NCBI GenBank assembly: GCA_050124835.1
Contig: JASFEM010000006.1
Location: 6,110 to 70,109 of the forward strand
Direction of reading: 5' to 3'
DNA from: Syntrophobacterales bacterium
Lineage (GTDB): Bacteria > Desulfobacterota > Syntrophobacteria > BM002
Length of the DNA: 64,000 nt
The stretch's first letter is position 1; every line of letters starts with the position of its first letter. Below, one piece after another: positions 37,372 to 57,780 of the stretch. The notes under the pieces were generated by a model. The model saw nothing but the letters and a program-made list of their open reading frames with translations. It was not told where the DNA came from and did no database searches. The translations under genes and the position numbers were made by a program.

Positions 37372-37640
37372 ACCATTTCGGATTTCGGATTTCGGATTGC
37401 GGATTTAAAAAAGGGCATCTGTTCCGTTTACCGTTCACTGTTCAGCTCTCACCAGAGGGATTTCGGATTTTGAAACTATAAATAGTGATCTCTGCCCTCT
37501 GATCTATGACTTCTGATCTCTAATCTTTTCTAATCCCCGTTTCGCCGTTGCTCCCAATCCCCGTGTCATTCCGCTGTGCCTAGTGCTTAGTTCCTAGTGC
37601 CTAGTTGCAACGGCTGCCAGTTGCACGCTGCCAGCTGGTT
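37372..37640. repeat. Composite cassette, copy A
   Basis: Same module order as 57445-57780; first 73 nt differ at only 2 positions. Confidence 0.9.
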
Positions 37641-37672
37641 GCGTGTCCGACGAAAGAGTACTTTCAATGCCC

Positions 37673-38302
37673 CTAGAACCCTGCTGCAATCGCTTTGGCC
37701 TGCTCTCTGGCCGCCGCCATACCCTTTTCTTTGTCTTCAGGCGATCCCAGCATCGGTTCCACTAATATGGTCTGGAAATCGCCGAAACCAATGAATCCCA
37801 AAATATGTTCCAGATAGGGCCTTTGCAGATCGTAGGCTTCAGCGCCAGTACCAGAACCGTAAGCACCACCCCGCGCGTAGATGGCAGCAATCGGTTTACC
37901 GGTTACCAATCCTCTATAGCCTTCCTCAGGACTGAAACTAAAGGTGTAGCCGGGCTGAACGATTACATCGATATAATGCTTAAGCTTGTAGGGTATGCCG
38001 AAATTCCACATGGGCAGGGAAAAAAGATACTTATCCGCGTCGGCGAATTGCGAGATGATACTTTCCACCCTGCTCCAGGCCTGGCGCTGTTCGTCCGTGT
38101 GCTCGAGACCGTGAAGGATGAAGTACTTGGAATCAATGACGTGGCCGTCAAATTCTGGAAGTGTGATGGACCAAAGGTCTAGAGTTTCGACGGTATCGCC
38201 GGGGTGAGTTCGCTCATATTCTGAGATGAAAGTTTTGGCGATCTCGATGGAAGCAGATCTCTCTTTTCGGGGTGATGATTCGATATACAATAAATGTGAC
38301 AT
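37673..38302 (-). CDS. FMN-dependent NADH-azoreductase (AzoR/AcpD family)
   Basis: IESSPR...SAS, ADKYLFSLPMWNFGIPYKLKHYID, ARGG.Y. Confidence 0.92.
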   Translation of the reverse strand: MSHLLYIESSPRKERSASIEIAKTFISEYERTHPGDTVETLDLWSITLPEFDGHVIDSKYFILHGLEHTDEQRQAWSRVESIISQFADADKYLFSLPMWNFGIPYKLKHYIDVIVQPGYTFSFSPEEGYRGLVTGKPIAAIYARGGAYGSGTGAEAYDLQRPYLEHILGFIGFGDFQTILVEPMLGSPEDKEKGMAAAREQAKAIAAGF

Positions 38303-38412
38303 TCTGAGCCTCCTCTGTTGTGTCTCAAACCAAATTTATTGCAGGAAAATGGTCGGTTTTTCTAAACAGTTGCCTCAAATATAGTCACGAATAAGGCCGA
38401 TGCAACGGTAAT

Positions 38413-38590
38413 TGCCTAAAGTGAGCTAAAGTGTCTAAAATGTCTAAAATGGAAATTGTCTGGGTGGCGAGTCGCCCAACCTTACTGGTTGAGAAATGAA
38501 AGTAGTTTTATTATATTCCTTTCCCTAGCGAGTGTAGTCCTCCGGATTTTAGGCACTTTAGCTCATTTTAGCTCACTTTAGACACTTAAC
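38413..38590. repeat. Inverted pair of 9/10-mer arrays (TGCCTAAAR / TGAGCTAAAR) around a ~95-bp core
   Basis: Left 38413-451, right (reverse complement) 38546-590. Confidence 0.85.
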
Positions 38591-38604
38591 TCACGGAGTG
38601 CCCT

Positions 38605-39042
38605 ATGCAATCAAAAGTGAAAGTTTGGCTGTTTGGTGTAGTTTTCAGCCTTATGGCGTTCGCTGTTTGCCCCCTGGTCGGCAGCGGGGAAATAGGGCCG
38701 CAAAAAGTGGACTGCGACGTCAATGCTGGCCCGTGCAGCGCGGTTGTGGCAGGGAGTCAGGTGAGCCTGGATATCAATCCCAAACCTGTCAAGGCCATGG
38801 AAGACCTCACTTTTACCGTGACCTTTACTGGAGAGAAAAGTTCGTTCAACCCATACATCGATCTTGGAATGCCTGGCATGAACATGGGCAGAAACAGGGT
38901 GATATTGAGTCCAGCGGGAGAGTCCATTTTCCAGGGCAAGGGAATCATCGTCCGATGTCCCAGCGGTCGACGGACCTGGAAAGCTACAGTAGTGATACCT
39001 GAAAGAGGCTCGGTGGAGTTCGTCTTCGATGTCATCTACTGA
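38605..39042 (+). CDS. Exported YtkA/FixH-like protein (putative Cu-handling)
   Basis: Signal peptide, CDVNAGPC, DLGMPGMNMG Met-rich motif, RCPSG; translationally coupled to the DsbD_2 gene. Confidence 0.55.
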   Translation: MQSKVKVWLFGVVFSLMAFAVCPLVGSGEIGPQKVDCDVNAGPCSAVVAGSQVSLDINPKPVKAMEDLTFTVTFTGEKSSFNPYIDLGMPGMNMGRNRVILSPAGESIFQGKGIIVRCPSGRRTWKATVVIPERGSVEFVFDVIY

Positions 39043-39721
39043 AACAATTTATTTCATCCTTTTTTCCTCGGGCTTTACCGTGGGCTTTGGCCACTGCATC
39101 GGTATGTGCGGGCCAATTGTCGCCTCGCTTTCCCTTAGCCTGAAGGGAAGGGGTGTCATGGTACCCCATCTGCTATACAACGGAGGGAGAATCACCACCT
39201 ACGGTTTACTCGGCGGTTTTGTGGGAGTTTTGGGAAGCTTTACCCGAGTAACCTCAAGTATCGCGAGCCTTCAAAAAGGTGTGATGATATTTGCCGGCGT
39301 ACTCATCATCGTGCTTGGACTCGCCATGGCAGGGTGGGTTCCCTTGGGAGCAATTTTTGGAGATTACTGTAACCCCAAGGGTGTCCTGGGCCGCGGCTTT
39401 CGCAAGTTGTCCGACGCCAGGACCACCGGGACTTACTACCCTCTGGGATTGTTGTTGGGACTGCTGCCCTGCGGGCCGGTGTACACAGCCCTGATTGCCG
39501 CAGCGCGAGCCGGGATGGAGGCCCGAAACTCAACGGAGGGATTTATCCTCGGAATGGGGCTCATGCTGTCATTTGGCCTGGGCACGGTGCCAGCTCTTTT
39601 TCTGGTTGCCAAGCTTACCGACCTCGGCTGGTTGAAAAGGAGAGATGTGATCTACAAGGCATCCGCGGTTCTCATGGTCATTGTGGGGGTTTATTTTGTG
39701 ATCAAAGCAATCAGGTATTGA
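39029..39721 (+). CDS. DsbD_2 / sulfite exporter TauE-SafE-like membrane protein (oxidase/metal assembly type)
   Basis: GHCIGMCGP, YNGGRITTY, GLLPCGPVY, FGLGTVP motifs. Confidence 0.85.
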   Translation: MSSTETIYFILFSSGFTVGFGHCIGMCGPIVASLSLSLKGRGVMVPHLLYNGGRITTYGLLGGFVGVLGSFTRVTSSIASLQKGVMIFAGVLIIVLGLAMAGWVPLGAIFGDYCNPKGVLGRGFRKLSDARTTGTYYPLGLLLGLLPCGPVYTALIAAARAGMEARNSTEGFILGMGLMLSFGLGTVPALFLVAKLTDLGWLKRRDVIYKASAVLMVIVGVYFVIKAIRY

Positions 39722-39739
39722 CGGCCTGTTGCCCAATTA

Positions 39740-40065
39740 TGACTTGCCAGCTTGAAAGTCGAATCGTGGTTGGTCCCACAATTCAATCTGTCTTCATACG
39801 AGGACAACTTTGGCTATTAAACCAAAAAAATCACAGAGCAGACAAAGAAGATCTACTTCGAATATCCCAGCGCTAAAGCCCGTTGTGCGCGGGTTAAGTG
39901 TTCTTATTTGTATACCCGCGGGGTGGAGTTCTTCATACCGAATTTGCTTGATATCCACTCTGTAGCCTGCCTTAGACGCTGTGACCGGTCTGATTCCCAA
40001 CCCAGTTACTCTACTAAATTTAATTATTTCAAACACTTGTTTCCTTCCGCGTTGTGAGCCGTTCT
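39740..40065 (-). pseudogene. Possible degraded PilZ-domain gene
   Basis: Fragments in two frames (ERLTTRK; GYRVDI..AGIQIRT; LIAKVVLV*RQIEL..AG) loosely follow a PilZ layout, with a frameshift and stop. Weak. Confidence 0.25.
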
Positions 40066-40162
40066 ATTGGCATTTTTCTTGCTGTTTCAGCGTGGCGTAG
40101 GCAGGCGGCTTCATGAAAATGCCGGGAAACTGGTACTTTTCATTTCGTGTCAGGTTAACTAT

Positions 40163-41605
40163 ATGAAATTATTAAAACAATGGAAGTTTCTCAATTCTAA
40201 AGCGGTGGCATTTTATCAACAAGGCTGGTATTCGGTAGCTGCCAGCTTAGGTGAAGAGACCCTTAAATTTGCCGAGAAAGCATTCGGCACAGACCATCCA
40301 TATGTTGCGGAGTCCTTGAATAATCTTGCGATTATTTACTTCTCACAGGCGAAAGAAGCCGAGGCTGCCATTTTCGAACAAACACTAACCCAGCGTGAAG
40401 GAAAGGTGCTCTGGCCGGACCATCCCGAAACCTCACAATACCTGAACAAACACGTCTTGCATAATCTCGCCCAACGTAAGTACAGTCAGGCAGAATCTCT
40501 ATTTAGACGAACCCTGGAAATCAAGAAAAATGCTCTTGGTCGGGAACCCTCAGAGTGGATGCAAGTATTAGGTAACCTTGCTGACTTACATAAATCCCAG
40601 GGCAAATACGCCGAGGCTGAATCCTATCTGAGATCGCTTAGAGTTAGAGATAAAATAGATTCGCGATACGAACAACTGACTGATGAGGAAACAGAGAACT
40701 CTGATCTGCGGGAGTTGAGTCATAACCGGGAGTACATGCGGTGCAGCGGCTACTTTCCAGCCAGACTATCCAAGTCGGAGAAGACCGGTCACATCAGCGG
40801 GATAACAGAAAACATCAGCCAGGTGGGAACATTCATTAAGACCAAGGACTGGAAATCTTTCAGAACTGACGATCAGGTTTCGATAGCAATCTCCCTTCCC
40901 TCAGTTTTCTCGGAACAGAACGCCACAATCGACATGGAGGGTCGCGGTATAGTAACCCGGGTCGATGAGGAAAACGAAGGTGTGGCCATACAGTTTATGA
41001 GGACTTTCAAACAATTCAAGAGAGTGGGCGAGAAAGAGCTCCCGGGGAAAATTAGATACAAAAAAATCGCTCATTATCTCAAGGTCTTAGAAGATACCTC
41101 ATTGACAAGTTTCGTAGAAACATATCCTAAAGGATTTTTCGTTGAAAGATTTCAGCTCGATTTTGACAGTGATGTGATTTTCCAATTCAGCACAAAACAG
41201 ATAGATATCTTAGATGAGCTATCAGGAAAGGTAATAGATTCCGATTTTTTGGAAGCAAGAGTCATCGAAATAAATAGCAAAAAAATTGAAAATAATGAAG
41301 GCGTAATTACCATAGGAAGATCAGCAAGTAATGATATCGTCTTGTACAATAAAACGGTTTCCAAATCACATGCCTTTCTATATTTTCCTTCTGTTCATGA
41401 TGACGCCTACGTGGCTGACCTGAAATCAACAAATAGCACTTTCATTAATGATGAAAAGATAACACCACACGTCATGTATCAGTTGGCGGATGGCAATGAG
41501 ATATCGTTTGGACCACAAACCAAGCTTATCTTCCTCACATCGAAAACTTTCCATGATTTTCTTGTCTCGCTAAAAAAATCTCGCCAAAGTCAAATGGATT
41601 CCTAA
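40163..41605 (+). CDS. TPR + PilZ + FHA multidomain signalling protein
   Basis: TPR_12-like (DHPYVAESLNNLA), PilZ REYMR...ENISQVG, FHA ITIGRS..ND...VSKSHA...DLKSTNSTFIN; AT-rich; start refined to ATG 40163. Confidence 0.75.
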   Translation: MKLLKQWKFLNSKAVAFYQQGWYSVAASLGEETLKFAEKAFGTDHPYVAESLNNLAIIYFSQAKEAEAAIFEQTLTQREGKVLWPDHPETSQYLNKHVLHNLAQRKYSQAESLFRRTLEIKKNALGREPSEWMQVLGNLADLHKSQGKYAEAESYLRSLRVRDKIDSRYEQLTDEETENSDLRELSHNREYMRCSGYFPARLSKSEKTGHISGITENISQVGTFIKTKDWKSFRTDDQVSIAISLPSVFSEQNATIDMEGRGIVTRVDEENEGVAIQFMRTFKQFKRVGEKELPGKIRYKKIAHYLKVLEDTSLTSFVETYPKGFFVERFQLDFDSDVIFQFSTKQIDILDELSGKVIDSDFLEARVIEINSKKIENNEGVITIGRSASNDIVLYNKTVSKSHAFLYFPSVHDDAYVADLKSTNSTFINDEKITPHVMYQLADGNEISFGPQTKLIFLTSKTFHDFLVSLKKSRQSQMDS

Positions 41606-41900
41606 CCCGCATGATTCACGAAAAGATTCTAAAAGGCTTCACGTTAAGTCCCCTACCAATTCAGGAGGGGAGGAGAATGCCTGTCTTATTCAACAGGCTG
41701 CTGCTAATCTGAAGCGATCTAGTTAATGGCATTACTGGAAACAGAACCTCTACGACGTTTTTCTAGCCTAAGAATTCAGTTATCCCGTCCTCAAACAATA
41801 CGAGTCAAAGCGATATATATAACTAATTATATTGAGTTTTAAAAGAATATAATTTTCTTGTAAATTTTCACTTGACTTACCAAGTTCATGTCGGTAAAGT

Positions 41901-41916
41901 AGTTCATACTATGAAG
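41901..41916. promoter_or_regulatory. Candidate MarR operator 1 (autoregulatory)
   Basis: Palindrome TTCATA-C-TATGAA overlapping the marR ATG and just after TTGACT-N17-TAAAGT. Confidence 0.55.
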
Positions 41917-42390
41917 GATAATGTCACAGATCCCATAGACGAACTGCTGGGTTATCAAGCCGAAAGATTACAAAACCTCATCGAAGAGATTCTGCATTGC
42001 TGTAAAGAAAGAACATCCTACCTATCTAAGAAATTTAACATTCCTGAAGCAGAATTGCGTTGTTTGATGCTGTTTGGCGAAGAGAGATATCTGACGGCAA
42101 AGGGCATCTCTCAAAAGCTTGACGTGGCCAAAAGTCGGGTGACCAAGATTATCAACGGCATGATGGCGAAGAAACTGGTCGAAAGCGTAGACGATCCCAA
42201 GGATGCCAGGATTAAGCTCATCGGCCTTACCCCCCAAGGACAGAAGAAGTCGAGAGAATTGAGTGCCATCATTACGGATCTTCATCAGAAACTGCTATTG
42301 GAATTCGAGCCCGATCAGCGAAAAATGGTGCTTTCATGCCTGGAAGTGCTCCGCTCAAGCATGGAGGCCGTCAAGAAACAATTGGTCTAG
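41911..42390 (+). CDS. MarR-family transcriptional regulator
   Basis: wHTH LTAKGISQKLDVAKSRVTKIINGM..K.LV...DPKDARIKLI.LTPQG. Confidence 0.92.
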   Translation: MKDNVTDPIDELLGYQAERLQNLIEEILHCCKERTSYLSKKFNIPEAELRCLMLFGEERYLTAKGISQKLDVAKSRVTKIINGMMAKKLVESVDDPKDARIKLIGLTPQGQKKSRELSAIITDLHQKLLLEFEPDQRKMVLSCLEVLRSSMEAVKKQLV

Positions 42391-42625
42391 AAACACTTTG
42401 ATATATATTTGTCACAGGGGTAGCTAGTACTTTTACTTTTCCTTCAGAAGGTTTTCGCACTTGGGATGATCATAGCTCGATTTCTTATTTTCTGTCTCTC
42501 CACCGAAAACTGAAAAGAAACCCTTCTTACCCCTATCTCCGACGGAAGTTCAGCTAGATTCTCAGGTTGCTGCACAAGCTCTTACCGGCGAAGGGTTTGT
42601 GTAAAGTGCCAATTTTCTTGATCAT

Positions 42626-42646
42626 ATGGTTAATACTATTAACTAT
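42626..42646. promoter_or_regulatory. Candidate MarR operator 2, upstream of the FadL-like gene
   Basis: ATGGTTAATA-C-TATTAACTAT palindrome; shares core GTT(C/A)ATACTAT(G/T)AA with operator 1. Confidence 0.55.
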
Positions 42647-42808
42647 ATTTCTGCGGTTGACGCCATAAGAGTTTGAAATGGTTTCATAGATAACCACTTA
42701 GTAAAGACACAGCGAGAAAACAATTCATGTAAAGGAGGTGAAGGGAAGACAATTTTAGGAAGTTAACCTGATTGAAGACAAAGGAGGAAAACACGGAGGG
42801 AAATCAAA

Positions 42809-44122
42809 ATGAAAAAAATATTTACGATTCTTGCAATTCTTGTCATGGTTACAACGCTCTCACCTTCTGCTTTTGCCACCAATGGTGACAATTTGATCGG
42901 TGTTGGCCCCATTTCAAGAGCGATGGGTGGCGTGGGAATAGCCGCACCTCAGGATGCCATCAGCGCGGTTTTTGCCAACCCGGCAGCCATGTGCTTCGGG
43001 CCGTACTGCCCCACGTCACAATTTGATTTTGGTGCCACCATGTTTGCGCCCAAACCTAGCGCCGAAGTAACCGCCTTTGGTCAGACCATCAAGGAGGACA
43101 GTGAGGATAATATCTATCCCATCCCCGCCATAGGTTTTTCCGTTCCCGTAGGGGGGGCTGATTCCAGATTGCGGTTCGGACTATCGGCCTACGGCGTATC
43201 AGGTCTTGGGGTGGATTACCGGGACTCCGACCTGGACAACCCGCGATTTTTTGACTTCGATCCTGCTGGCGCTGGCAATCCGGACCAGCGTTATGCCCCC
43301 CTCATTCAGGGAGAGTACACCCAGTTACAGATCATGAAGTTTGCCCCGGCGGTTGCCTATCAGGTCACGCCCCGGTTGTCTTTGGGTCTGGCAGTTCACG
43401 TCAACTATGCAAACCTCGACCTGAGAAACGGCAACTCTCCCAACTGGTCTGCCGGTGTGCAACCGGGTATCATCTATAGGCCTCTGGACAACTTGTCGCT
43501 GGGCTTAACCTACGTTTCGCCTCAAGAGGTAAACCATAGGGATGTACTGCTCGCCGATCCTACGACTAACAATTCGGCAAATCTGAAGTTAGAATCTCCA
43601 CAGCAGGTGGGACTGGGAGTTGCCTACGAGTTTGTCGGGATCGGACTGTTGCTCGAGGCGAATGGGAAATGGATCAATTGGTCGGATGCCAATGGATACG
43701 ACGATTTTGACTGGAACGACCAGTATGTCATTGCGTTGGGGGCGCAATGGGAAGCCATCCCCAAATTGTTCCTCAGGTTAGGATACAACTATGCCGAGAA
43801 TCCGGTGGATGACCATGATGGCTGGGACGGCAGTTTTGGTCCAGCGGGTCCGAATGACACTGTAACTGTCCAGGGAACAACCTTTCCGCGCTACTATTAT
43901 GAATCTTTCAGGGTTGTCGGCTTCCCGGCCATAGTGGAGCACCACCTCACCCTGGGCATCGGCTATGAGTTCAATGAAGCCTTCTCATTTAACCTGGGCT
44001 ACATGCATGCCTTCAAGAACGATCTAGAGGAGACAGGCACGGACCCCTTTGGTACTCCAGCCAAGTTTAAGTCGGAACTCTATGAGAATTCCCTTGATTT
44101 CGGCTTCACCTGGAGATTCTAA
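42809..44122 (+). CDS. OmpP1/FadL/TodX-family outer-membrane transport protein
   Basis: Signal peptide, TNGDNLIGVGPISRAMGG, AVFANPAAM, GLSAYGVSGLG, C-terminal WRF. Confidence 0.9.
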   Translation: MKKIFTILAILVMVTTLSPSAFATNGDNLIGVGPISRAMGGVGIAAPQDAISAVFANPAAMCFGPYCPTSQFDFGATMFAPKPSAEVTAFGQTIKEDSEDNIYPIPAIGFSVPVGGADSRLRFGLSAYGVSGLGVDYRDSDLDNPRFFDFDPAGAGNPDQRYAPLIQGEYTQLQIMKFAPAVAYQVTPRLSLGLAVHVNYANLDLRNGNSPNWSAGVQPGIIYRPLDNLSLGLTYVSPQEVNHRDVLLADPTTNNSANLKLESPQQVGLGVAYEFVGIGLLLEANGKWINWSDANGYDDFDWNDQYVIALGAQWEAIPKLFLRLGYNYAENPVDDHDGWDGSFGPAGPNDTVTVQGTTFPRYYYESFRVVGFPAIVEHHLTLGIGYEFNEAFSFNLGYMHAFKNDLEETGTDPFGTPAKFKSELYENSLDFGFTWRF

Positions 44123-44213
44123 AACGATGATCAACCAGTTATCTCAGTCGTGGACAATGGGTTTTTAGTCGACTAATATTATTTTATATTTGAGATTTAG
44201 GAGGAAAAAAACA

Positions 44214-44657
44214 ATGGCAGAAGAAAAAGAAAAAGCAGCGTTTATTTGTGTAAAGGACACCCTGGATGGGGCTTACCCGTCTCTGGTCCTGGGAATCAAC
44301 GCGGCCCGGCAGGGCATGGAGAGCAAGATCTTCTACTCATTTATGGGGTTGAACATGGTGCTCAAAGGTGGCGCTGAAAGGGCGAAGTTCGTTCCCCCCG
44401 GCGTCATGGGTGCCATCCCCGGGATGTCCAGCATCGCCACCGGCATGATGAAGAAAAAGATCGACAAGGCCAATATTCCCAGCCTGGCAGAACTCCAGGA
44501 GGTGGCTCAGCTGGAAGGGGTCGAGTTGATCGCTTGCAAGATGACCATCGACATGATGGAGATAAAAGAGGACAAGCTGATTGATGGCGTCCCCGTCTGG
44601 ACGGCTGAGGATTTCCTGGTGTACGCCAGGGATTGCAAGATCTGCCTCTTTACCTAA
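44214..44657 (+). CDS. DsrE/DsrF/DrsH-like (DrsE_2) protein
   Basis: TLDGAYPSLVL, IFYSFMGL, MMKKKI.KANIPSL.EL, LIACKMTIDMM (conserved Cys); start ATG 44214. Confidence 0.85.
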   Translation: MAEEKEKAAFICVKDTLDGAYPSLVLGINAARQGMESKIFYSFMGLNMVLKGGAERAKFVPPGVMGAIPGMSSIATGMMKKKIDKANIPSLAELQEVAQLEGVELIACKMTIDMMEIKEDKLIDGVPVWTAEDFLVYARDCKICLFT

Positions 44658-44669
44658 TGTTCTTCATTG

Positions 44670-48899: not shown

Positions 48900-51077
48900 A
48901 TGCTTGTCGAACTCGAGGGGCAGCTCGAGCGAATCACTTACGCCAATGAGGAGACCGGTTTCACCATCGCCAAGGTGAAAGTGCATGACCGCAAAGAGCT
49001 GGTGACCGTGGTGGGAAATCTTGCCGCTCCCACTCCTGGAGAGGTTATCGCGATGAAGGGCGAGTGGGTGAATCACCCCAGATACGGCGAGCAGTTTAAA
49101 ATAATCCACTACAAAACTCAAACGCCAGCCTCGGTACAAGGTATTGGGAAATACTTGGGTTCCGGCCTCATCAAAGGTATCGGTCCGGTAATGGCCAAAC
49201 GTATTGTGGAAAAATTTGGCAAGGAGACCCTGGAGGTAATTGAAAACAGGGTAGAGAAACTTGCTGAGGTCGAGGGTGTCGGAAAAAAGCGCATCCAAAT
49301 GATCAAAAGAGCCTGGGCCGAGCAGAAGGACATTCGGGAGGTAATGATTTTCTTGCAATCTCATGGGGTCAGTTCAGGCTATGCCACAAAGATTTTCAAA
49401 CACTATGGTAGCAGGTCCATCGAAATGGTGAAGCAGAACCCTTATCTTCTGGCGACAGATGTTTTTGGCATCGGTTTCGTCACAGCCGACAGCATCGCCG
49501 AGAAGTTGGGGTTTGCCCGAGATGCTGAGCTAAGGGCCGAAGCGGGGATTCTTTACGTGCTCAACCAACTTGTCGAAGATGGTCATGTGTACTTTCCCTA
49601 TGAGCGATTGGTAAAGAAGTGCCAGGAGATCCTCAAGGTGGACCGGCAGGTGGTGGTCGAAGCGTTTGGCAGAGTTAGTGTCGACCAAAAAATTGTTATC
49701 GAGGATCTGAACCAAGATATCGAGGAGTTTCGAGAAAACTATAAAGCGGTTTACCTGCCCAAGTACCACTTTTCCGAAACCAATGTTGCCGCTAGGCTTA
49801 AGATTCTGCTGAACACCCCCAAAACGATAAGGAGGATTGATACCGGCAAAGCCGTCGAATGGGTTCAGAACCAACTTCATATCACCCTGGCCCAGAAACA
49901 GTTGGCGGCAATAAGGTGCGCTGCCGAGGACAAGGTGCTGGTGATCACTGGGGGACCGGGGACCGGGAAAACCACAATCATAAACGCGGTTCTGAAAATT
50001 TTTGCAAAACTCGGGGTGGATATCATGCTGGCTGCACCCACTGGCAGGGCGGCGAAACGGATGAGTGAGGCCACAGGTCATGAGGCCAAGACCATTCATC
50101 GGCTATTGGAATATAGCATGCAGAAGGGTGGGTTTCAGAAAGATCAGGATCGGCCACTCAAGTGTGACCTGCTGATCGTGGACGAGGCCTCGATGATTGA
50201 CACTATCCTGATGCACCACCTGCTCAAGGCTGTTCCCCCGAACGCCACCTTTATAATGGTGGGGGATGTTAATCAGCTACCATCGGTTGGCGCCGGAAAC
50301 GTGCTCAAGGACATCATCGACTCGGGTGCGGTCAAAGTGGTGGAATTAGACGAGGTCTTTCGCCAGGCCCAGGAAAGCTCCATCATCGTCAATGCGCATA
50401 AAATCAACAATGGTATTATCCCCTCACTCAAAACCTCTGATAGAAGGGACGACGATTTCTATTTTATCGAGCAGGAAGATCCAGAAGAGGTTTTAAGGAT
50501 CATACTGGAGCTCACGAGAGAGCGGATACCCAACCGTTTCGGCTTGGACCCTGTTGAGCAAATTCAGGTACTGACTCCCATGCACCGGGGTACGGTGGGG
50601 GCTGAGAACCTGAACCTGAGGTTGCAGCAAGCGCTCAATCCTCGAGAAGAGAGTATAAGCCGAGGAGGCATGCATTTCCGGGTCGACGACAAAGTCATGC
50701 AAATAAGAAACAACTACGACAAAGAGATATTCAATGGTGATATGGGGAGAATCGCTCGCATTGATTTTGTAACCAAGGAAGTGACCATCGTTTTTGATGG
50801 GGTTGAAGTATTATACGACTATGCTGACATCGACGAAGTTGTCCTGGCCTACGCCATATCTGTCCATAAAGCGCAGGGCTCCGAATATCCGGCGGTAATT
50901 ATCCCCATTTTGACCCAGCACTACGTGCTCTTACAAAGGAACCTTGTCTACACGGCTGTGACCCGGGGTAGCGAACTAGTGGTCCTGGTCGGCACAAGAA
51001 AAGCGCTTGCTCTTGCGGTCGACAACGATAAGACGCAGAAACGCTATACTTATCTCAGCCACAGGCTGGGCGCGTAG
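48900..51077 (+). CDS. recD2: ATP-dependent RecD2-like DNA helicase
   Basis: HHH region (GIGPVMAKRIV), ITGGPGTGKTT, AAPTGRAAKR, IVDEASM, VGDVNQLPSVG, LAYAISVHKAQGSE, YTAVTR. Confidence 0.95.
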   Translation: MLVELEGQLERITYANEETGFTIAKVKVHDRKELVTVVGNLAAPTPGEVIAMKGEWVNHPRYGEQFKIIHYKTQTPASVQGIGKYLGSGLIKGIGPVMAKRIVEKFGKETLEVIENRVEKLAEVEGVGKKRIQMIKRAWAEQKDIREVMIFLQSHGVSSGYATKIFKHYGSRSIEMVKQNPYLLATDVFGIGFVTADSIAEKLGFARDAELRAEAGILYVLNQLVEDGHVYFPYERLVKKCQEILKVDRQVVVEAFGRVSVDQKIVIEDLNQDIEEFRENYKAVYLPKYHFSETNVAARLKILLNTPKTIRRIDTGKAVEWVQNQLHITLAQKQLAAIRCAAEDKVLVITGGPGTGKTTIINAVLKIFAKLGVDIMLAAPTGRAAKRMSEATGHEAKTIHRLLEYSMQKGGFQKDQDRPLKCDLLIVDEASMIDTILMHHLLKAVPPNATFIMVGDVNQLPSVGAGNVLKDIIDSGAVKVVELDEVFRQAQESSIIVNAHKINNGIIPSLKTSDRRDDDFYFIEQEDPEEVLRIILELTRERIPNRFGLDPVEQIQVLTPMHRGTVGAENLNLRLQQALNPREESISRGGMHFRVDDKVMQIRNNYDKEIFNGDMGRIARIDFVTKEVTIVFDGVEVLYDYADIDEVVLAYAISVHKAQGSEYPAVIIPILTQHYVLLQRNLVYTAVTRGSELVVLVGTRKALALAVDNDKTQKRYTYLSHRLGA

Positions 51078-51407
51078 CGGGAAACCAGCAGGCAGCCGGC
51101 AGCAAAGCGTAGCTGAAAGCGTCCCCTAAAGTACAACTAGGCACTAAGCACCAAGCACTGTGAATCTGATTGAATCCTCGGAAGTTACTATAGATAGTGG
51201 CGGGATCTCGAATGACGAAGCGTAGATTAAAGTATGTTAGTTGAAGTCCTCTACCTGATTACTAGGGCTTCATATTTTAGCGCCTATAAGGCCTCCTCTT
51301 GTCAAGGCATAGACTTATCCCAATAACGCTTAAGAGAAATCGCTCCATACCCCTACTTGTCATTGACGAAGATCTTGTTGCCTAGTCCATTCCGTTGGCT
51401 TACAGAA

Positions 51408-51600
51408 TTACAGTTCACACGGCTTTTGAAGATCCTGGCACCCATGATCAGATCGACCTAAATCTAAATAGGCAGCCCCCGGGTTGACGTAGGCTATGGC
51501 AAGCCTCGGGTTTAGATCTAGGGCCTTAGCAATAGTGGGTGGCTTTGCCGAGGTCATGCCAATGATTGGGTCGGCTTTGGTTTTGCCCTTGCTTGGAAGA
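51408..51600 (-). pseudogene. Frameshifted TPR-protein remnant
   Basis: Minus-strand translation KALDLNPRLAIAYVNPGAAYLDLGRSDHGCQDLQKPCEL*, preceded by HDLGKA in another frame. Confidence 0.5.
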
Positions 51601-51673
51601 TAAAGGCAAAGTATCCAGATTACAGTCGGGATTGGCTCTAAGAAGGGATAAATCCTTTAAAGCTCTTTTTTGG

Positions 51674-52234
51674 CTACTCTTTTATGAAACGCAAAACATA
51701 TCCTTGGGCATAACCGCCGAAGTGAACAAGTCTATTCCAACTCTTCTCTTCAAATCGGAAATTTGCGGCATCTATTTCTTCTATAACATCTTCTATCTCC
51801 AGATCGGCGAGGCACCACATAGGAAAATCTGACTTGCAGTGTTTCGGATAAACGGAAAGAATCCCCTTTTTCTTCAAAACCCGGTACACTTCCTCATACA
51901 AGTCTTTCCGCTGCCGGATATAATGCAAAACATCGTAAAGGAGAACTGCATCAACACTTTCATTGCCTAGGTCAACCTTCAAATCTCTTTTGCAATTCAT
52001 AAAAACAATATTGTCTAAGCCTATCGATCTTGCCCGCTCTGAGAGTTTCGTGAGGACTTCTTTGTCCTTGTCAACTGCGTAGATCTTTCCTTGGCCGTCA
52101 ACCACAATGGCGGCCGGTATGGTATAATAGCCTTCTCCACAGCCGAAATCCAAAATGTACTGCCCCTCTTGGATGCCAATATCCTGCAAAAACACGATTC
52201 CATGTTCAGCGAACCATTTTTCCATTTCTTTCAA
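51674..52234 (-). CDS. Class I SAM-dependent methyltransferase
   Basis: ILDFGCGEG, IYAVD, VDAVLLYDVLH, RVLKKKG. Confidence 0.88.
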   Translation of the reverse strand: MKEMEKWFAEHGIVFLQDIGIQEGQYILDFGCGEGYYTIPAAIVVDGQGKIYAVDKDKEVLTKLSERARSIGLDNIVFMNCKRDLKVDLGNESVDAVLLYDVLHYIRQRKDLYEEVYRVLKKKGILSVYPKHCKSDFPMWCLADLEIEDVIEEIDAANFRFEEKSWNRLVHFGGYAQGYVLRFIKE

Positions 52235-52423
52235 TTTACCCTGTGATGAGCATTTTCACCAGATCAATATGAAAAGGTCATCATTGCGCAGGTTTTCATG
52301 ATCAGCAGGATAAAAACATGAAGGATCTCCTGAGCTGATCAGTATGGCGAGTCTGCGGTAGGGTGTGTTTGGCCGTCGAGGAAGATTGAGTCTGTAGATC
52401 TGAACTGATACGTCACCCTCTTC

Positions 52424-52633
52424 TCAGTAGCCTACTTCCCCTGGAACCTCAGCATATGCCAATTCTTTTTTCAGCCACTCATTATCCTTTTTCAACCGCT
52501 CGTTTTCTGTCTCCAACTCCTCAACACGCTGAAGCAGCCAATCGATGTCGTCTTTGACTGGCCCCGGCGAGGCCTTGGAAAGCCGATCTTTTACCTCACC
52601 TAGTCTATTGCCGGACATTTTCTCATCCCTCAT
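52424..52633 (-). CDS. Small coiled-coil hypothetical protein
   Basis: 69 aa, GAGGGG SD, heptad pattern LLQRVEELETENERLKKDNEWLKKEL. Confidence 0.6.
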   Translation of the reverse strand: MRDEKMSGNRLGEVKDRLSKASPGPVKDDIDWLLQRVEELETENERLKKDNEWLKKELAYAEVPGEVGY

Positions 52634-52954
52634 GTCTACTCGTAGCTTTTGAGTCTATCTTGTAAATTTCATTATTGCACATAAAACCCATAGAAGCGAA
52701 GTAATACCGATCAATCCAGAAAACTCATTCCAATCCCTCCTTTGACAAAGGTGGATAAAGAGATTTTCCGACAATGTCTTCCCTAATACAAACTATAGGC
52801 TCTAAAGACCCTAGTACAGAATGTGGTAGGCGTTTCTAGGGGGGCAGAGTTTAGATTAAAGTATGTAATTCACATTTCAGGTGGTCCAGTTTGGACTTCG
52901 GTTGAGCACGCTTACACTGCTGACCTGGGTCAAAGCGAGCGCTGAGGGAGCTCC

Positions 52955-55159
52955 TCAATCGACCCAGCCGAGAACATCGCGGATCACCGACCACCGCGGC
53001 TGCCGCGGCTTGGCACCGCTCCCTAGGATCCAGTGCTCGTAGAGCTGGTCGAGCGTCTTGTCCTCGCGCTTCAGACGCAACCAGGCATTGATGAAGTCGT
53101 TGAGGGGCTCGGCGTCGCGCGCCATACCGATGGCGACAGGTGCGGCGAGCACACTCGGCTGTGGGATCGCCACGCTGAATTCGGGGTGCATCAGTGTCCA
53201 CGCTGCGCCCCGCTCTCCGGTAATGAGCATCGCGTCCAACTCATCGCTGCGCTGGCGAAAGAAATCTTCGGGTGATGCGAGTTTAACTATCTCCGCATCC
53301 GGAAGGAGTTCCCGGAGTTCATCCACGTAGTAGGCATTTTCGAGCACTCCAATACGCGGTCTCACCAACGACCTGACAGCCTCTCGACTGGCGAATTTCG
53401 ACCGCACGTGGTCTCGCACAAGGAAGCTCATCGTGGCCTTCATGTAGGGATCTGAGAACCTCATCTGGAGCATGCGATCCGGCGTGATCGTCAAACCGGA
53501 CATCACCACATCACATCGACCAGAAGTGAGATCGGCTGCCATCGAATCGAGTGACACCTTGACAAATTCGAGATCGACTCGCATTTCGCGTGCGAGGACA
53601 TTGGCCAGATCAACATCAAGGCCGACCAACTGCGACTTAGAGTTGACGAACACGTTCGGCAGAGAGTCCTCAAGATACCCCACTCGGAGTACGCCGCGTC
53701 GGACGATCTGGTCTAGCCGGGAGATCCCCGGCACGTAGTCGCCTACCGGAACCGTTTCCCGAATTGTGAACGGGACCGGCTCGCCGGCGAGCGTCATCGC
53801 CAAGAAGCTCTCATCCTTCTCGTAATCATGTGGCAGAGCGAATTCGTAGATGGCCCGCAAGCCACCAACCGCGGCAGCAGTGAGGAGCACCGTAATCACG
53901 AGGTAGCGAACAAGGGCAGCTCGCTGTGCTCGAAGTAGCCCCATGGCTGAGCCGCCAATTAGAAGAGCCAGCGCCAACGTGTGAACACCGCCGAGCAACT
54001 GTCCGAAGCGGCCCGTGGAGACATCCAACGCGACGAAGAGCTGGAAGGTGTCGGCGGGTATCCGCATCAAGTCCAGCAGGAATGGCAGCGCGATGACCTC
54101 TGCGAACATGCTTGGGAGACCGGCAGAGAGGAACAGCGGGTACTGACCCGCGGACATCGCGAAGCCTGTCAACCAGCCGGCGAATGGCACGAAACCGAGC
54201 GCGATCAGCTTCCCGAGATGCGGGGTCGTGAAGTTGACGGGCACCGCCACATCGACAGCGCTCTCAGAGTCGCGACTACGCTCCCCGATCTCGGCCAACG
54301 CTTTCTTCGCAGCCTCAGCGATGAGCGGCAAGGTCACGAGTAACGAACCCGTTGCGAAGGCGGTGATGAGCGCATCCTTTCCGAAGCGCATGATCTGGCG
54401 ATAGGAAATCGGCAAGAGCGCCGTAACCAAGCCGGGCACTACCCAGAAGCTCAGCACCAGCGCAATGGCGATGTAAGAGTAGATGTAGACCTGCAGTTGT
54501 ACGAATTCCTCCACGCGCATCGTCCCGGCAGCGACGCCCACAAGTGCGAACACGCCAATGGGGGCCAGTCGCACAACGAATGAGGCAATCGCCATAAAGG
54601 CGTCGGTTAGAGCGTCGAGCAGGGCGAGCACGGACTGTTTCTTCTCCTCCATTGGGATGAGCACGATGCCCAACGCGACACAGAAGAGCACGACGGCCGG
54701 CAGAACACTGTTGGACAAGGATGAGAAGGGGTTCGAAGGCACGTAGAGCCCGATGAAGTCGAAGGCGGGTGGTGTCTCGGCGAGACTGGTGCTGAAGAAT
54801 GTCGCGGAGGTCCAGCTGGGAAAAGTCGCCGGCATGGCGAGTACTGCCAGCGCCCCAATGCCCCAGAACAGAAGCAGTAATGATCCTGCTCGGAGCCCGA
54901 GGCTCGCCGCCTGCTTGGATGTGAGGCGGCCCAGACCGCCGATCAGAGCCACCACGACGTACGGCCACACGGACATCTGGAGCAAACCGATGAACACATC
55001 GCCGACAGGCGCGAAGACCCTCATCATGTCGCCGAAAACGATGCCCGCCACCAGACCGAGGCCGAGGGCAATGAAAATCTGCGCGGAAAGGCCGGGCATT
55101 CGAAACCATTTGCGCTGCAGTGTCTGGGTGTCGCTGACTAAATCCCTGGGAGTACTCAT
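52955..55159 (-). CDS. Dicarboxylate/amino acid:cation symporter fused to a family-3 solute-binding domain
   Basis: N-terminal DAACS-like TMs (TAFATGSLLVTLP), C-terminal SBP_bac_3 (LRVGY...GLDVDLA, DVVMSGLTITPDR, FSDPY); start refined to ATG 55159. Confidence 0.85.
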   Translation of the reverse strand: MSTPRDLVSDTQTLQRKWFRMPGLSAQIFIALGLGLVAGIVFGDMMRVFAPVGDVFIGLLQMSVWPYVVVALIGGLGRLTSKQAASLGLRAGSLLLLFWGIGALAVLAMPATFPSWTSATFFSTSLAETPPAFDFIGLYVPSNPFSSLSNSVLPAVVLFCVALGIVLIPMEEKKQSVLALLDALTDAFMAIASFVVRLAPIGVFALVGVAAGTMRVEEFVQLQVYIYSYIAIALVLSFWVVPGLVTALLPISYRQIMRFGKDALITAFATGSLLVTLPLIAEAAKKALAEIGERSRDSESAVDVAVPVNFTTPHLGKLIALGFVPFAGWLTGFAMSAGQYPLFLSAGLPSMFAEVIALPFLLDLMRIPADTFQLFVALDVSTGRFGQLLGGVHTLALALLIGGSAMGLLRAQRAALVRYLVITVLLTAAAVGGLRAIYEFALPHDYEKDESFLAMTLAGEPVPFTIRETVPVGDYVPGISRLDQIVRRGVLRVGYLEDSLPNVFVNSKSQLVGLDVDLANVLAREMRVDLEFVKVSLDSMAADLTSGRCDVVMSGLTITPDRMLQMRFSDPYMKATMSFLVRDHVRSKFASREAVRSLVRPRIGVLENAYYVDELRELLPDAEIVKLASPEDFFRQRSDELDAMLITGERGAAWTLMHPEFSVAIPQPSVLAAPVAIGMARDAEPLNDFINAWLRLKREDKTLDQLYEHWILGSGAKPRQPRWSVIRDVLGWVD

Positions 55160-55512
55160 TATGCGCTCCAATTGTAAATCTTCATTTCGAGGCAGCCTAT
55201 GCATCGACCACGTGAAGCTGTAGACGCTCGATTATATGGTCCAAATGGGTCTTCAGCCGTCAATAATTAGGCAGAAGTTTTTCTGTATATGCCGACAATC
55301 GAGGACTTTTATAGAAAGTATAGAATCTCTCAATATCTCGGCTACTACAAAAAATAATTATGTGACAGTGACTGTCAATGGGACAAAGCACCCTTGAGTT
55401 GAATTAAGCGGAACAAAAGGAGGGGAGCGAACTGTGGATTACATCCCTTAATCTAAACTTCTGCTGGAATTAAGTCTGACACAAGATGTTGAGATTTTTC
55501 AAGGCAGGGTCA

Positions 55513-56616
55513 CTAGAGGAAAAGTGTCTCACCGTGTTTGAGATGGACCAGGCGGTCTGTCAAACCTTCCTCTTCCATCTCTTTATTGATATCAATCGGC
55601 GGAAAATGGACGGGTTCATCACCCAGGCGGAAGGTTCCCCAGTGGGCAATCATGAGCCTTTTGGCTCCCAGTTCCTTAAAGGCCTGGACCGTTTCTTTTG
55701 GGTTCATGTGGCTGCCTGCCATGAACCAGCGCGGCTCATAGGCGCCAAGGTTAATAACCGCCAGGTCTATGGCGAATTCTCGGCCAATTTCATGAAAACG
55801 GTCAAAATAGGCAGTGTCCCCCGAGATGAAAATCGTTGGGCCACTAGCAGTTCTGATCATGTAGGAACCCCAGAGGGAGCGGTTGGGACCCTCAAATGGA
55901 TTGCGCATGGTCCAATGATCACAAGGCAGGAAGATGATTTCCCTTTTGCTGTCCTGGAAGGTATCAAACCAATCCAGTTGGGTGCGACGGGTCATTTTGA
56001 GATCGGCAAAGGTGTCATTATATCCCAGCGGGGTAATGACGTGGGTGTCTTTGTCCAACTTGGCAAGTGAGTGGGTATCCAGGTGATCGTAGTGGCCGTG
56101 AGTTAGGAGGACGTGGTCGGGTCGGGGCATTTCAGCCAACCCCGATTGCAAAGGAGTGTAATCCTTTATGAAAGGGAATATTTCAAAGAAGACCGGATCC
56201 ACCAGGATATACTGATCTCGGTCTCTGATCATAATACTGGCATGCTTCAGGAAGGTGACGGAGAGCTCTCCGTGAGCTCGAACCGGCTCCCAGTCTATGG
56301 AGACGGGTTGCACCGGCTCTTGGTCGTAATATGACCTGAACTCATTTTCACCGAACAGCTTCCAATGCAAAACGCGCAGCATGTTCCCATGCTTTTTTGT
56401 AGTGAAGGGATTTATGAAGCGGTCTTCGCCGTGGTGTAGTTTTTTTTGAGCTAATCCTCTGAGACTGTAGTCTTTGAAAGGCGACGGCGGAAGGTCCTCC
56501 CCGTGTTTGGCGGCACCAGACTGAAGATTGGTACAACCCAAAGCGAGATTTAGCAGGGCTGCCTTCTTTCCTAAGTTCAGAAGATTTCTGAGAAACATGC
56601 GTCGGTCCATCGTCAC
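55513..56616 (-). CDS. Tat-exported MBL-fold metallo-hydrolase (NAPE-PLD/RomA-like)
   Basis: DRRMFL twin-arginine motif, THGHYDHLD, HWTMR, LWGSY, GDTAY, GAYEP, HWGTFRL. Confidence 0.88.
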   Translation of the reverse strand: MTMDRRMFLRNLLNLGKKAALLNLALGCTNLQSGAAKHGEDLPPSPFKDYSLRGLAQKKLHHGEDRFINPFTTKKHGNMLRVLHWKLFGENEFRSYYDQEPVQPVSIDWEPVRAHGELSVTFLKHASIMIRDRDQYILVDPVFFEIFPFIKDYTPLQSGLAEMPRPDHVLLTHGHYDHLDTHSLAKLDKDTHVITPLGYNDTFADLKMTRRTQLDWFDTFQDSKREIIFLPCDHWTMRNPFEGPNRSLWGSYMIRTASGPTIFISGDTAYFDRFHEIGREFAIDLAVINLGAYEPRWFMAGSHMNPKETVQAFKELGAKRLMIAHWGTFRLGDEPVHFPPIDINKEMEEEGLTDRLVHLKHGETLFL

Positions 56617-56726
56617 TCAAACCATTAATTCTTCCTGTCCTAAAAATGATTACTTTGGAACTGTAATGAGAAACAACTAATAAGCACGGGAAGGGTAAAA
56701 GGCAAGCCTAATAACTGGACGGATGA

Positions 56727-57410
56727 TCAAAGGTTAATGATCAATTGAACAATCTGGTCGGAGTTGGAGAGGTCAGAGACCACATGGTTGGCTTCGGTTT
56801 TATTCAACTGCTCAACTGAGTAGGGGCCGGTGGCCACGGCAATGGAAGAGGCACCGTGGACCCGGGCACATTCCACATCCCTTGGTGTATCGCCAATGAC
56901 CACACAATGGTCGTAGGCCAAAGAGACGTTTTCGATCTCCCTGAGTCTTAGCACAGCAATTGGCAAGAGCTCGTGTCGATCCTCAGAATCACTTCCAAAG
57001 GCGCCGACCTGAAAAAATTCCATTAGGCCGAACTGGCCCAATTTGAGCTCCGCCCCTTTTTTGAAATTGCCGGTCAGAAGACCGAGATGAACATCCTCGG
57101 TGTCGCTAAGTATTTGTAGAATTTCCCAAACGCCAACTTTAACGTGACCTGCGCCATTGGAGAGCTCGCCACTGAGATAAGAAAGATAGAGGTTGATTAT
57201 AGCGTGCGGCAGGTCACCACTTTGGGAAAGGCCCAAACTTTTCAAACCTTCCCTCACAATCTGCAGGTCTGTCTTCCCCGCAAAGCTTATTCCCCTAAAG
57301 CCTTCTTTGACACCTGTAAGCTTTGTCAAGGCACGGTCCAGGGCGCGATTGCTAGCTCCGTCCGACCCTATGAGAGTGCCATCAATGTCAAACAAAACGA
57401 ATTTAGTCAT
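56727..57410 (-). CDS. HAD-family hydrolase
   Basis: LFDIDGTL, GKTD, GLLTGN, VIGDTPRDVECA. Confidence 0.9.
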   Translation of the reverse strand: MTKFVLFDIDGTLIGSDGASNRALDRALTKLTGVKEGFRGISFAGKTDLQIVREGLKSLGLSQSGDLPHAIINLYLSYLSGELSNGAGHVKVGVWEILQILSDTEDVHLGLLTGNFKKGAELKLGQFGLMEFFQVGAFGSDSEDRHELLPIAVLRLREIENVSLAYDHCVVIGDTPRDVECARVHGASSIAVATGPYSVEQLNKTEANHVVSDLSNSDQIVQLIINL

Positions 57411-57444
57411 TGTTGATTCCAAATTACTGAAGGCATAGAGCTAT

Positions 57445-57780
57445 ACCATTTCGGATTTCGGATTTCGGATTGCGGATTTTAAAAAGGGTATCTGTTCCGT
57501 TTACCGTTCACTGTTCACCTTTGACCCGCGGGAGTTGGGATTTCGGATTTTGAAATTATAAATAGTGATCTCCGTTCTCTGATCTCTGACCTCTATCGTC
57601 CGCCCTTTAATCCCCTTCTCGCCGTTTCTCCCCGCCCCCGTGCCTGCCCGCCATCGGCTTCGCCTTCAGGCGAGGCGGGCGGGTCGTCCCGCTGTGCCTA
57701 GTGCTTAGTCCCTAGTGCCTAGTTTTCAATGCTGCCAGCTGCTGGCTGTCTGCTGCAAGCTGGGCAAAGGCCTTGCGCCT
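57445..57780. repeat. Composite cassette, copy B, with an inserted hairpin
   Basis: Homologous to 37372-37640, plus a GC hairpin at 57643-57683. Confidence 0.9.

Follow-up and report, generated by a model that had tools for sequence, protein, structure and literature searches.

The 64,000-nucleotide stretch analysed here (contig JASFEM010000006.1 of assembly GCA_050124835.1, positions 6,110 to 70,109 of the forward strand, hereafter the window) belongs to a bacterium of the Syntrophobacterales and carries two similar intergenic cassettes, A (37353..37640) and B (57433..57765), both set on the minus strand, which is the mRNA sense of the genes that flank A. They represent a gene-less mosaic repeat, restricted to the genus, of which they are two among many copies. 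Its construction is hierarchical: about four units make an array, two arrays a block, and blocks combine into composites. This mosaic stands between a stop codon and the next promoter or start, in a fixed orientation and with its purine-rich strand in mRNA sense. The cassettes are neither a new RNA gene nor a new transposon but a variant of a kind of bacterial repeat that is known yet unexplained. The explanation that we favour, at a probability of about one half, is that they are modular and probably selfish repeat DNA of 3' untranslated regions (3'-UTRs), copied piecewise and akin to the hairpin cassettes with heptamer arms that resemble intervening sequences (IVS) of rRNA.

An earlier note, made from the letters of the window alone, had drawn attention to the pair, and its description of the match was reproduced. 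Recomputation returned the same identity of 71/73 nt between 37372-37444 and 57445-57517, and three signature strings occur in the window exclusively at the two loci, namely GCATAGAGC at 37353 and 57433, GGGATTTCGGATTTTGAAA(C/T)TATAAATAGTGATCTC at 37457 and 57537, and CCGCTGTGCCTAGTGCTTAGT(T/C)CCTAGTGCCTAGTT at 37571 and 57689. The MAFFT alignment is collinear from about 37353/57433 to about 37640/57765, over some 290-330 nt with indels, and the match is far beyond chance, since BLAST of cassette A against the whole assembly retrieved B at E = 2.7e-54. Both cassettes lie, as the note had described, between co-directional minus-strand genes (36638-37255 and 37673-38302 for A, 56727-57422 and 57786-58640 for B). 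The gene upstream of A (37673..38302, minus strand) is of the Flavodoxin_2/FMN-reductase type (azoreductase-like) according to Pfam; its stop codon faces the cassette, as does that of the minus-strand gene upstream of B (57786..58640). The absence of a gene from the cassettes was likewise borne out, the open reading frames (ORFs) touching them being mostly antisense frames inside the true flanking genes and none being credible. A small peptide was considered and rejected: the short ATG frames of the sense strand, compared by eye, differ among A, B and the copy on contig C135. Local segmental duplication was rejected, as the homology does not extend past the edges of the cassettes into the flanking genes, which are unrelated. 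Within the species cassette A is stable, contigs from other samples (L001, L003) being identical or one base off.

Tandem Repeats Finder (TRF) resolved A and B into the same succession of short arrays: ATTTCGG x4.6, a GTTCACC-type array, CTGAYCT (TGATCTC), GTNTCNCC octamers, CCTAGTG (GTGCCTA) x4.3 and a GCTGCCA-type array. In A, block 1 (37353..37445) comprises GCATAGAGC with a GCATGGG remnant, (ATTTCGG)x4.6 at 37375-37406, the linker AAAAAAGGGCATCTGTTCC and GTTTACC GTTCACT GTTCA; in B, TRF and segment comparison place it at 57433..57519, with GCATAGAGC, (ATTTCGG)x4.6 at 57448-57479, the linker and a GTTCACC-type array. It is followed in A by the linker GGGATTTCGGATTTTGAAACTATAAATAGTGATCTC (37457..37492), 97% identical to its counterpart in B, which segment comparison and exact string search put at 57537..57572; the TATAAATAGTGATCTC signature within it is private to A and B, the remaining copies having TATGAGGGGTGATCTC-type sequence. 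The third part, delimited by TRF and the family alignment, joins a CTGAYCT heptamer array to an octamer array, at 37486..37566 in A (CTGAYCT at 37486-37521, then GTNTCNCC octamers at about 37529-37566) and at 57566..57642 in B, where the octamers finish on a CCCCGTG end. Next comes, in B, a GC-rich hairpin of 41 nt, CCTGCCCGCCATCGGCTTCGCCTTCAGGCGAGGCGGGCGGG (57643..57683, plus strand), A being uninterrupted at the same point. The last part consists of CCGCTGTG with (CCTAGTG)x4.3, then the GCTGCCA array (37571..37640 in A, with a 15-nt palindrome revealed by the inverted-repeat search; 57689..57765 in B). Tandem heptamers, the hallmark of the short tandemly repeated repetitive (STRR) sequences of cyanobacteria, were called by TRF as period-7 arrays at 37375-37406, 37576-37605, 57448-57479, 57566-57594 and 57694-57723.

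A and B are not just two local copies. Searching the genome examined (3.97 Mb, 287 contigs, 50% GC) with a core profile, built from 7 aligned copies and 179 positions long from GGATTTCGGATTTTGAAA to the CCTAGTG array, gave 60 matches at a cut-off of E < 1e-3, with 15 near full length, A scoring E = 1.1e-27 and B E = 4.2e-53. When BLAST hits were grouped by locus, several modules in the same order were found at C135, C251, C4:69751, C4:66347, C142, C51 and C76. Read on the plus strand of the window, the order is an optional GCATAGA array, a GGATTKC array, GGATTTTGAAATTAT...GTGATCTC, a CTGAYCT array, TAATCCCCGTCTCGCCGTTTCTCC(G/C)YGTCCCCGYG octamers, the optional 41-nt hairpin, TCGTTCCGCTGTG, a CCTAGTG array and a GCTGCCA array. 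Coverage counts put the cassettes' arrays at about 100-130 occurrences, the linkers at 3-25 and a 42-nt GC-rich insert seen only in B at 16-24. The arrays themselves are still more abundant, with 1545 period-7 TRF rows representing 261 canonical heptamers and 406 period-8 rows over the whole genome; the commonest heptamers are the CCTAGTG family (135 arrays) and the CGGATTT family (89), and the leading units are ACTAGGC, AAATCCG and AATCTGC. They are dispersed in high copy number and mostly intergenic, as STRR are, 215 of 1519 non-redundant arrays falling in coding sequences under crude gene calls. Each of the 17 other species of the genus has multiple copies of the core. Beyond the genus it is nearly absent: 2 of the family's 4 other genera gave weak matches, and the 19 genomes from other families gave none.

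A piecewise origin of the pair is suggested by segment comparison. A is the best match of B in three segments, GCATAGAGC with the GGATTTC array (94%), the whole of block 1 (94% over 85 nt) and GGATTTCGGATTTTGAAATTATAAATAGTGATCTC (97%); for the linker with the GTTCAC array, A is 97% identical to B and ranks second behind a third block-1 copy of the window. For the CTGATCT, octamer, CCTAGTG and GCTGCCA segments of B, other loci are nearer than A (C111, C5, C33, C116 and others; C33 and C5 for the CCTAGTG-GCTGCCA end), and a spacer of 13-20 nt mid-way through the similar tract is unrelated between the two. The earlier note had taken the pair as evidence that the multi-module unit is copied as a whole. 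What stands of this is a repeated gene-less unit, part of which was truly copied between loci, but A is best for B only in the left 140 nt. The discrete element of 270-340 bp that the note proposed has to be abandoned, as ends and module content vary from copy to copy across the family and the A/B identity is patchy.

The third block-1 copy (15196..15299, 89-90% identical to B over 73-78 nt) is in the opposite orientation. It lies in a mosaic spacer between two minus-strand genes (15148-15506) that also holds octamers and CAGCDGG and GAGGTCR arrays, with block 1 reversed relative to A and B, and that ends immediately before TTGGACA, a -35-like motif.

The other species of the genus were compared as well. 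As a unit, the 140-nt tract (94-97%) was found in A and B alone and is absent from all other species of the genus, which hold parts of it: block 1 alone in G010 and G012, GCATAGAGC with GGATTTC alone in G004, G009 and G013. At site A, the orthologous spacer is readable in nine species, with arrays or hairpins that are quite different, and in G003 it is nearly empty. A shell resembling that of A, CACTAGG-octamer-GAGGTCA, is present in G004, and the sequence 'CCATGGCA-ACTAGGCAC' directly after the stop codon is kept in several species. Site B is occupied in most species by an (AGGCGCA)n hairpin, of which one unit remains in B, and in G017 it combines a CACTAGG-octamer start with a GCTCTAT-array end, both resembling B. 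The remnant is a small hairpin, AAAGGCGCAAGGCCTTT in gene sense, at 57766-57785, directly 3' of the stop of gene 57786-58640; at least five other congeneric species have their orthologous spacer filled by the (AGGCGCA)n/(TGCGCCT)n array hairpin of which it represents one unit. In our reading, old array shells probably exist at both loci and a species-specific inner tract would have been shared recently between A and B.

As a mechanism, we propose DNA-level copying, from locus to locus, of pieces rather than of the complete unit. The route would most likely be gene conversion, a non-reciprocal homologous recombination that would use arrays already common to both loci as anchors and that is expected to leave patchy identity flanked by shared arrays. 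Such conversion would have produced the species-specific 140-nt tract of A and B, and the copied pieces would nest inside older shells of CACTAGG, octamer and GAGGTCA arrays. By a separate process, the 41-nt hairpin would insert in an orientation-specific manner at CCGYG^TC in octamer arrays, as it seems to have done in B and not in A. The most likely status of the cassettes would be that of selfish or near-neutral DNA tolerated in 3' untranslated spacers; an effect on the host, for example marking the mRNA 3' end ahead of the next promoter, would be secondary if it exists. The family as a whole is probably related to the foldback cassettes whose arms are inverted heptamer arrays.

This hairpin was characterised further. 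CCTGCCCGCCATCGGCTTCGCCTTCAGGCGAGGCGGGCGGG has 13 copies in the genome, 8 of them identical, and 13/13 are lodged between CCGYG and TC in one orientation, the unit boundary within the octamer array varying from copy to copy. The hairpin copies have a mean pairwise identity of 97.4%, vs 54% and 41% for the adjoining 41 nt on their two sides, and the target motif has 146 unoccupied matches. The predicted fold reaches -31.6 kcal/mol on the plus strand (z = -3.5) and -25.6 on the other. Identical copies are shared by many other species of the genus, G010 and G012 among them, in which the azoreductase-like orthologues are about 76-84% identical. These features give the hairpin the signature of a site-specific miniature insertion. 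Being a hairpin at a fixed short target, in one orientation and without duplication, it matches what is seen in IS200/IS605-type derivatives such as palindrome-associated transposable elements (PATE).

This raises the question whether the cassettes themselves are a discrete non-autonomous transposon, similar to a miniature inverted-repeat transposable element (MITE), a REPIN (a doublet of repetitive extragenic palindromic, REP, sequences) or a PATE, and moved whole as a single strand by a trans-acting HUH/Y1 transposase. We consider this quite unlikely. The family is multicopy and its modules are collinear, the hairpin behaves at its fixed target as an IS200/IS605-like element with no evident duplication, and the genome does encode a Y1 protein resembling the REP-associated tyrosine transposases (RAYT); nevertheless, A and B have neither terminal inverted repeats nor terminal hairpins, their ends differ between copies, and their identity is patchy. 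The earlier note's statement that terminal inverted repeats are lacking is correct for A and B, in which the sole inverted repeat is the 15-nt palindrome (37624-37645), and does not extend to four sister copies (C4:69751, C4:66347, C142 and C51), which are bracketed by inverted (CACTAGG)n...(CCTAGTG)n arrays. These four are foldback cassettes; A and B are without the second arm. No direct repeat that could represent a target-site duplication was found at the ends of the A/B homology, so that both hallmarks of MITEs are missing from A and B, and the cassettes do not contain the imperfect palindromes of 20-35 nt, or their inverted doublets as around RAYT genes, that define REP and REPIN.

The RAYT-like gene was examined as a mobiliser of the cassettes and rejected, its flanking repeat being unrelated to their modules. 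It is the sole PF01797 gene of the assembly (C204:4260-5273, within C204:4203-5298), with no second Y1 gene to be found there, and encodes 337 aa, RAYT-like by NF047646 though below the cut-off, with a C-terminus like DnaA domain IV. On both sides of the gene stands a perfect inverted repeat of 25 nt, AATAGGGGACGTCCGTGAAATTTTA, to which about 12 sites dispersed in the genome are related; gene and repeat form a small REP/RAYT-like system apart from the heptamer arrays. The 41-nt hairpin has no cognate Y1 transposase in the assembly either, the ends of the only PF01797 gene being unrelated to it.

Another wetland sample provides the last argument for a transposon, an IS200-like element inside the CACTAGG array of cassette A. 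It measures about 640 bp (L002:3714-4351, corresponding to window 37575-37600) and sits exactly at a unit boundary of the array, between ...CTAGGAA and CTAAGCA..., with no evident target duplication; it has a 115-aa Y1_Tnp ORF and a subterminal hairpin GGATCCCCCGGCATAGCCGGGGGC. Two other contigs, L004 and L005, end in the CACTAGG array at the insertion point or within 2 bases of it.

The position of the cassettes relative to genes follows a strict rule. Based on gene neighbourhoods from our own crude gene calls, the gene on the CCTAGTG side points into the element for 30 of the 34 best core matches (one-sided binomial p of about 3e-6), and between co-directional genes the two orientations of the core number 20 vs 2. 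The core typically starts 0-70 nt past the stop codon, and the mRNA carries the reverse complement of the window's plus strand. Contig C1 bears two core copies 1.4 kb apart in opposite orientations, which indicates that the orientation rule follows genes and not the replichore. A check of replication vs transcription orientation by GC skew was confounded by coding-strand composition, and hairpin copies in the closed genomes of the genus are few (4, 0 and 3). Single heptamer families are also biased in strand and position, ACTAGGC occurring early and GCCTAGT late in the spacer, with AGCAGGC at 20:4, AATGACC at 8:0 and ACTACTG at 7:0. The sense strand of the cassettes has a purine fraction of 0.59-0.61 against a genome spacer mean of 0.505, and spacers genome-wide show no general purine or GC-skew asymmetry.

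The cassettes are also transcribed, at least at locus A, which was recovered in three wetland metatranscriptomes. In run X16, a contig of 233 nt covers 37375-37606 without mismatch at a depth of 11.8, a contig of 819 nt covers 37578-38314, including the upstream azoreductase-like gene, at a depth of 13.4, and depth is 0 both for the body of the downstream gene and for 37149-37331. Cassette A is most simply a 3' tail of about 300 nt on the upstream mRNA, ending at or in the last (AAATCCG)n array, because the RNA is about as deep over it as over the upstream gene and is at 0 in the body of the downstream gene. Just outside the cassette, beyond this array, the downstream gene has a promoter-like TAGACA-17-TATTAT (37317..37345, minus strand; 10/12 consensus positions), a block that is conserved at the orthologous sites of other species of the genus when the cassette region is not. 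The genes around cassette B are too weakly expressed in the metatranscriptomes for its coverage to be judged.

These observations sustain the main rival, a functional 3'-UTR element acting as operon punctuation, which we regard as a possible though tentative alternative and which stays alive because of the orientation rules. The arrays would be multivalent RNA sites for a single-strand reader with a step of about 7 nt (cold-shock-domain, S1-like or CsrA-like), or for RNase III when paired. They would act by defining the 3' end of the mRNA, by stabilising the message of the upstream gene or by insulating that message from the promoter that follows. It would account for the orientation of the core towards the upstream gene just past its stop, the strand and position rule followed by many heptamer families, the purine-rich sense strand and the co-transcription of A, whose RNA coverage ends at the terminal array before a conserved promoter; moreover, S1, Csp or Csr binding has been proposed for TAACTGA arrays (MacGregor 2015, PMC4679880). 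A sense-strand excess of G-U pairs in long helices, 5928 vs 5470 over 1378 co-directional spacers, goes in the same direction but amounts to 8% only. Against such a function stand the orthologous spacers of the genus, which have entirely different arrays or, in G003, almost none while genes and promoter are conserved, the occurrence of block 1 in both orientations relative to genes (14 genome copies; 6 vs 4 among co-directional pairs), and the lack of a conserved structure and of an intrinsic terminator in A. Near B, the sole terminator-like match is on the plus strand, at the gene-proximal edge.

A structured non-coding RNA was the other suggestion of the earlier note; as a gene with its own promoter, it is already effectively refuted. 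The region is indeed transcribed and the composite recurs, but its RNA depth is that of the upstream gene and scans of both cassettes found no promoter-like site inside them; the conserved ATAATTTCAAAATCC looks like a -10 element and was set aside as an internal promoter on the strength of these scans. Minimum free energies give z-scores of -0.25 to -0.67 for A and B on either strand, no stabler than shuffled sequences, and RNAalifold on 11 sense-oriented copies yields a consensus of -0.69 kcal/mol with four pairs and 0 compensatory changes. Rfam does not name the element: the whole window has 0 matches at gathering score, and the cassettes at E <= 1 give one chance-level match (E = 0.62).

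Related arrays occur in a wider set of elements. All five genes of the genome for PF05635, the four-helix-bundle family of the '23S rRNA intervening sequence', are bracketed by inverted hepta- or octamer arrays (C196:5636-5950, C12:16581-16898, C18:1333-1635, C149:743-1042 and C139:5401-5691), and these arrays include the GCGGATT/AATCCGC and CAGCKGG/CTGCTGC families that are also cassette components. Three of the genes have a common conserved leader of GAAAGGGGGCACCAAATG type ahead of the start codon. Beyond the genus, an exact 33-mer of A and B, within the GGATTKC array, was found in metagenome-assembled genomes (MAGs) labelled WOR-3, TA06, Desulfobacteraceae, Desulfatiglandales and Syntrophobacterales, and two of these loci also carry the adjoining GCATAGA/GCATGGG array. 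The stretches around the shared 33-mer in L006 (WOR-3) and L007 (TA06) are identical over at least 630 nt; this means either a single organism with two bins or two names, or an error of binning in one of the two. Across the phylum, 38 of 401 genomes, from 20 of 254 genera, contain (GGATTKC)3, against a single genome for the reversed control. In DNA runs X5, X9, X12 and X21, summed contig depth is 3400-13000 over the GGATTTC array (37370-37413) and 500-3200 over CCTAGTG (37568-37611) compared with about 3 for unique flanks, and each sample has hundreds of different contigs with such arrays, making them a community-wide feature of these sediments. A search of DNA runs for empty alleles of site A was likewise swamped by thousands of array-bearing contigs from other loci or organisms.

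Several points weigh against selfish, piecewise-copied repeat DNA as the explanation. No recombination intermediate or donor-recipient polarity was observed, and gene conversion would be deduced solely from patchy identity. The identity of the 41-nt hairpin across species suggests constraint or a conserved trans-acting partner. Local recombination cannot explain the spread of (GGATTKC)n through the phylum and into the WOR-3 and TA06 MAGs. A neutral process at the DNA level does not predict that the core and many heptamers are oriented relative to transcription, a bias that points to an RNA-level function or to a transcription-coupled copying step. The RNA evidence, for its part, consists of unstranded assembled contigs from a single run, with strand and exact 3' ends outside its reach.

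On a more radical view, the arrays would not be inert remains but the substrate of a dedicated, transcription-coupled copying system common to many sediment bacteria. It would write modules, be they arrays, two-array blocks or the 41-nt hairpin, into the 3' tails of transcription units with a fixed orientation, at targets like CCGYG^TC. We hold this to be unlikely, if less so than a transposon. It calls for a trans-acting factor conserved across species, for which the array-bracketed four-helix-bundle family (Avd/IVS-protein-like) may be the obvious candidate, possibly with an RNA or cDNA intermediate. Were it true, the conserved module order would be a grammar recording the footprint of nested, target-specific insertions.

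One further arrangement near cassette A appears to evolve differently. The divergent spacer between the azoreductase-like gene and a gene starting at 38605 contains inverted 9-10-mer arrays (CTAAARTGD and its complement, 38414-38453 and 38546-38587) around some 90 nt with a promoter-like TTGAGA...TATTAT, and arrays of this type occupy the same place in several other congeneric species, in contrast to the 3' cassettes, which change fast.

Among the repeats of bacterial spacers that still lack an explanation, tandem arrays of heptamers and octamers are some of the commonest. The A/B pair offers clean handles on their evolution, by combining inter-locus copying of a fixed array order, a strict orientation to the stop codon, a transcribed tail and a hairpin identical across species. 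It makes testable whether the arrays are selfish DNA or 3'-end signals, and which machinery recognises them. In practice, the cassettes break short-read assemblies, as shown by contigs L004 and L005 ending inside the CACTAGG array, and they should not be annotated as sRNAs or MITEs.

The repeat is not of an unrecognised type, as the earlier note had supposed, since it is built of STRR-like hepta- and octanucleotide arrays known from cyanobacteria, Beggiatoaceae and Geobacter. Heptamer arrays are on record in Xanthomonas and Nostoc (Rehm et al. 2015, PMC4692102) and, with the unit TAACTGA, in Beggiatoaceae (MacGregor 2015, PMC4679880). With these STRR or heptamer simple sequence repeats the cassettes have in common 7-nt tandem units that are mostly intergenic, number hundreds to thousands per genome, are patchy across phyla and often adjoin arrays of different units. 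They differ in their host, which is no cyanobacterium but an uncultured wetland or sediment bacterium sharing arrays with MAGs labelled Desulfobacterota-type, WOR-3 and TA06, and in their vocabulary (CCTAGTG, GGATTKC, GCATAGA and others). The classical cyanobacterial STRR units are CCCCAGT, TTGGTCA and CAACAGT. We know of no STRR description with a fixed composite of 4-6 arrays strictly oriented behind stop codons.

The paired hepta- and octanucleotide 'global regulator binding sites' of Geobacter metallireducens, with the consensuses TCTCCGTS, GTTGCTYN and MTYCTGA (Aklujkar et al. 2009, PMC2700814), are another close likeness, consisting of 3-5 units of 7-9 nt, often in opposite-strand pairs at variable distance, with insertion sequences next to or inside the arrays. 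The octamer family of the cassettes (...TCTCCGTGTCCCCGTG...) matches the class-2 consensus TCTCCGTS; the octamer module GTTTCTCCGTGTCCCCGTG contains TCTCCGTG and TCCCCGTG and conforms to an array of 3-5 consensus units; opposite-strand pairs are present in the sister copies and missing within A and B. The Geobacter sites are single or paired arrays and not multi-array composites, and PMC2700814 gives no data on transcripts, orientation or turnover. By analogy, each array of about 28-32 bp could be one DNA-level site for a nucleoid-associated or global regulator (IHF/HU-like), as was proposed for that species. Arrays of typically about 4 units, the octamer match, and the occurrence of arrays in both orientations and as inverted pairs would agree with this, but 261 heptamer types are too many for a few proteins, a bias relative to transcription is unexpected for symmetric DNA sites, and turnover between species is extreme, making it a very unlikely account of the cassettes.

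With the 23S rRNA IVS and PF05635 cassettes, the family shares the inverted-array bracketing, seen in the sister copies; A and B differ from them in lying in mRNA spacers and not in rRNA, and in having neither inverted arrays with a matching second arm nor a PF05635 ORF. Bacterial interspersed mosaic elements (BIME) with their REP sequences and the REPIN/RAYT systems (Bertels and Rainey 2011, PMC3116915) are likewise mosaics of short modules with variable linkers, extragenic, non-coding and usually in transcribed 3' regions of operons, but the modules of the cassettes are tandem 7/8-mers rather than imperfect palindromes of 20-35 nt, and the repeats flanking the RAYT-like gene are unrelated to them; we use both systems as working analogies only. 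The 41-nt hairpin, which resembles a palindrome-type derivative of IS200/IS605, also recalls by description the small dispersed repeats (SDR) of Nostoc and Anabaena, reportedly characterised by Elhai et al. in 2008, in being a very small and highly conserved insert at a constant short target within other repeats, and differs from them in length and sequence, being GC-rich and palindromic. What appears to be additional in the present family is the fixed order of multiple arrays, their strict polarity behind stop codons, the transcript evidence and the hairpin targeted to arrays.

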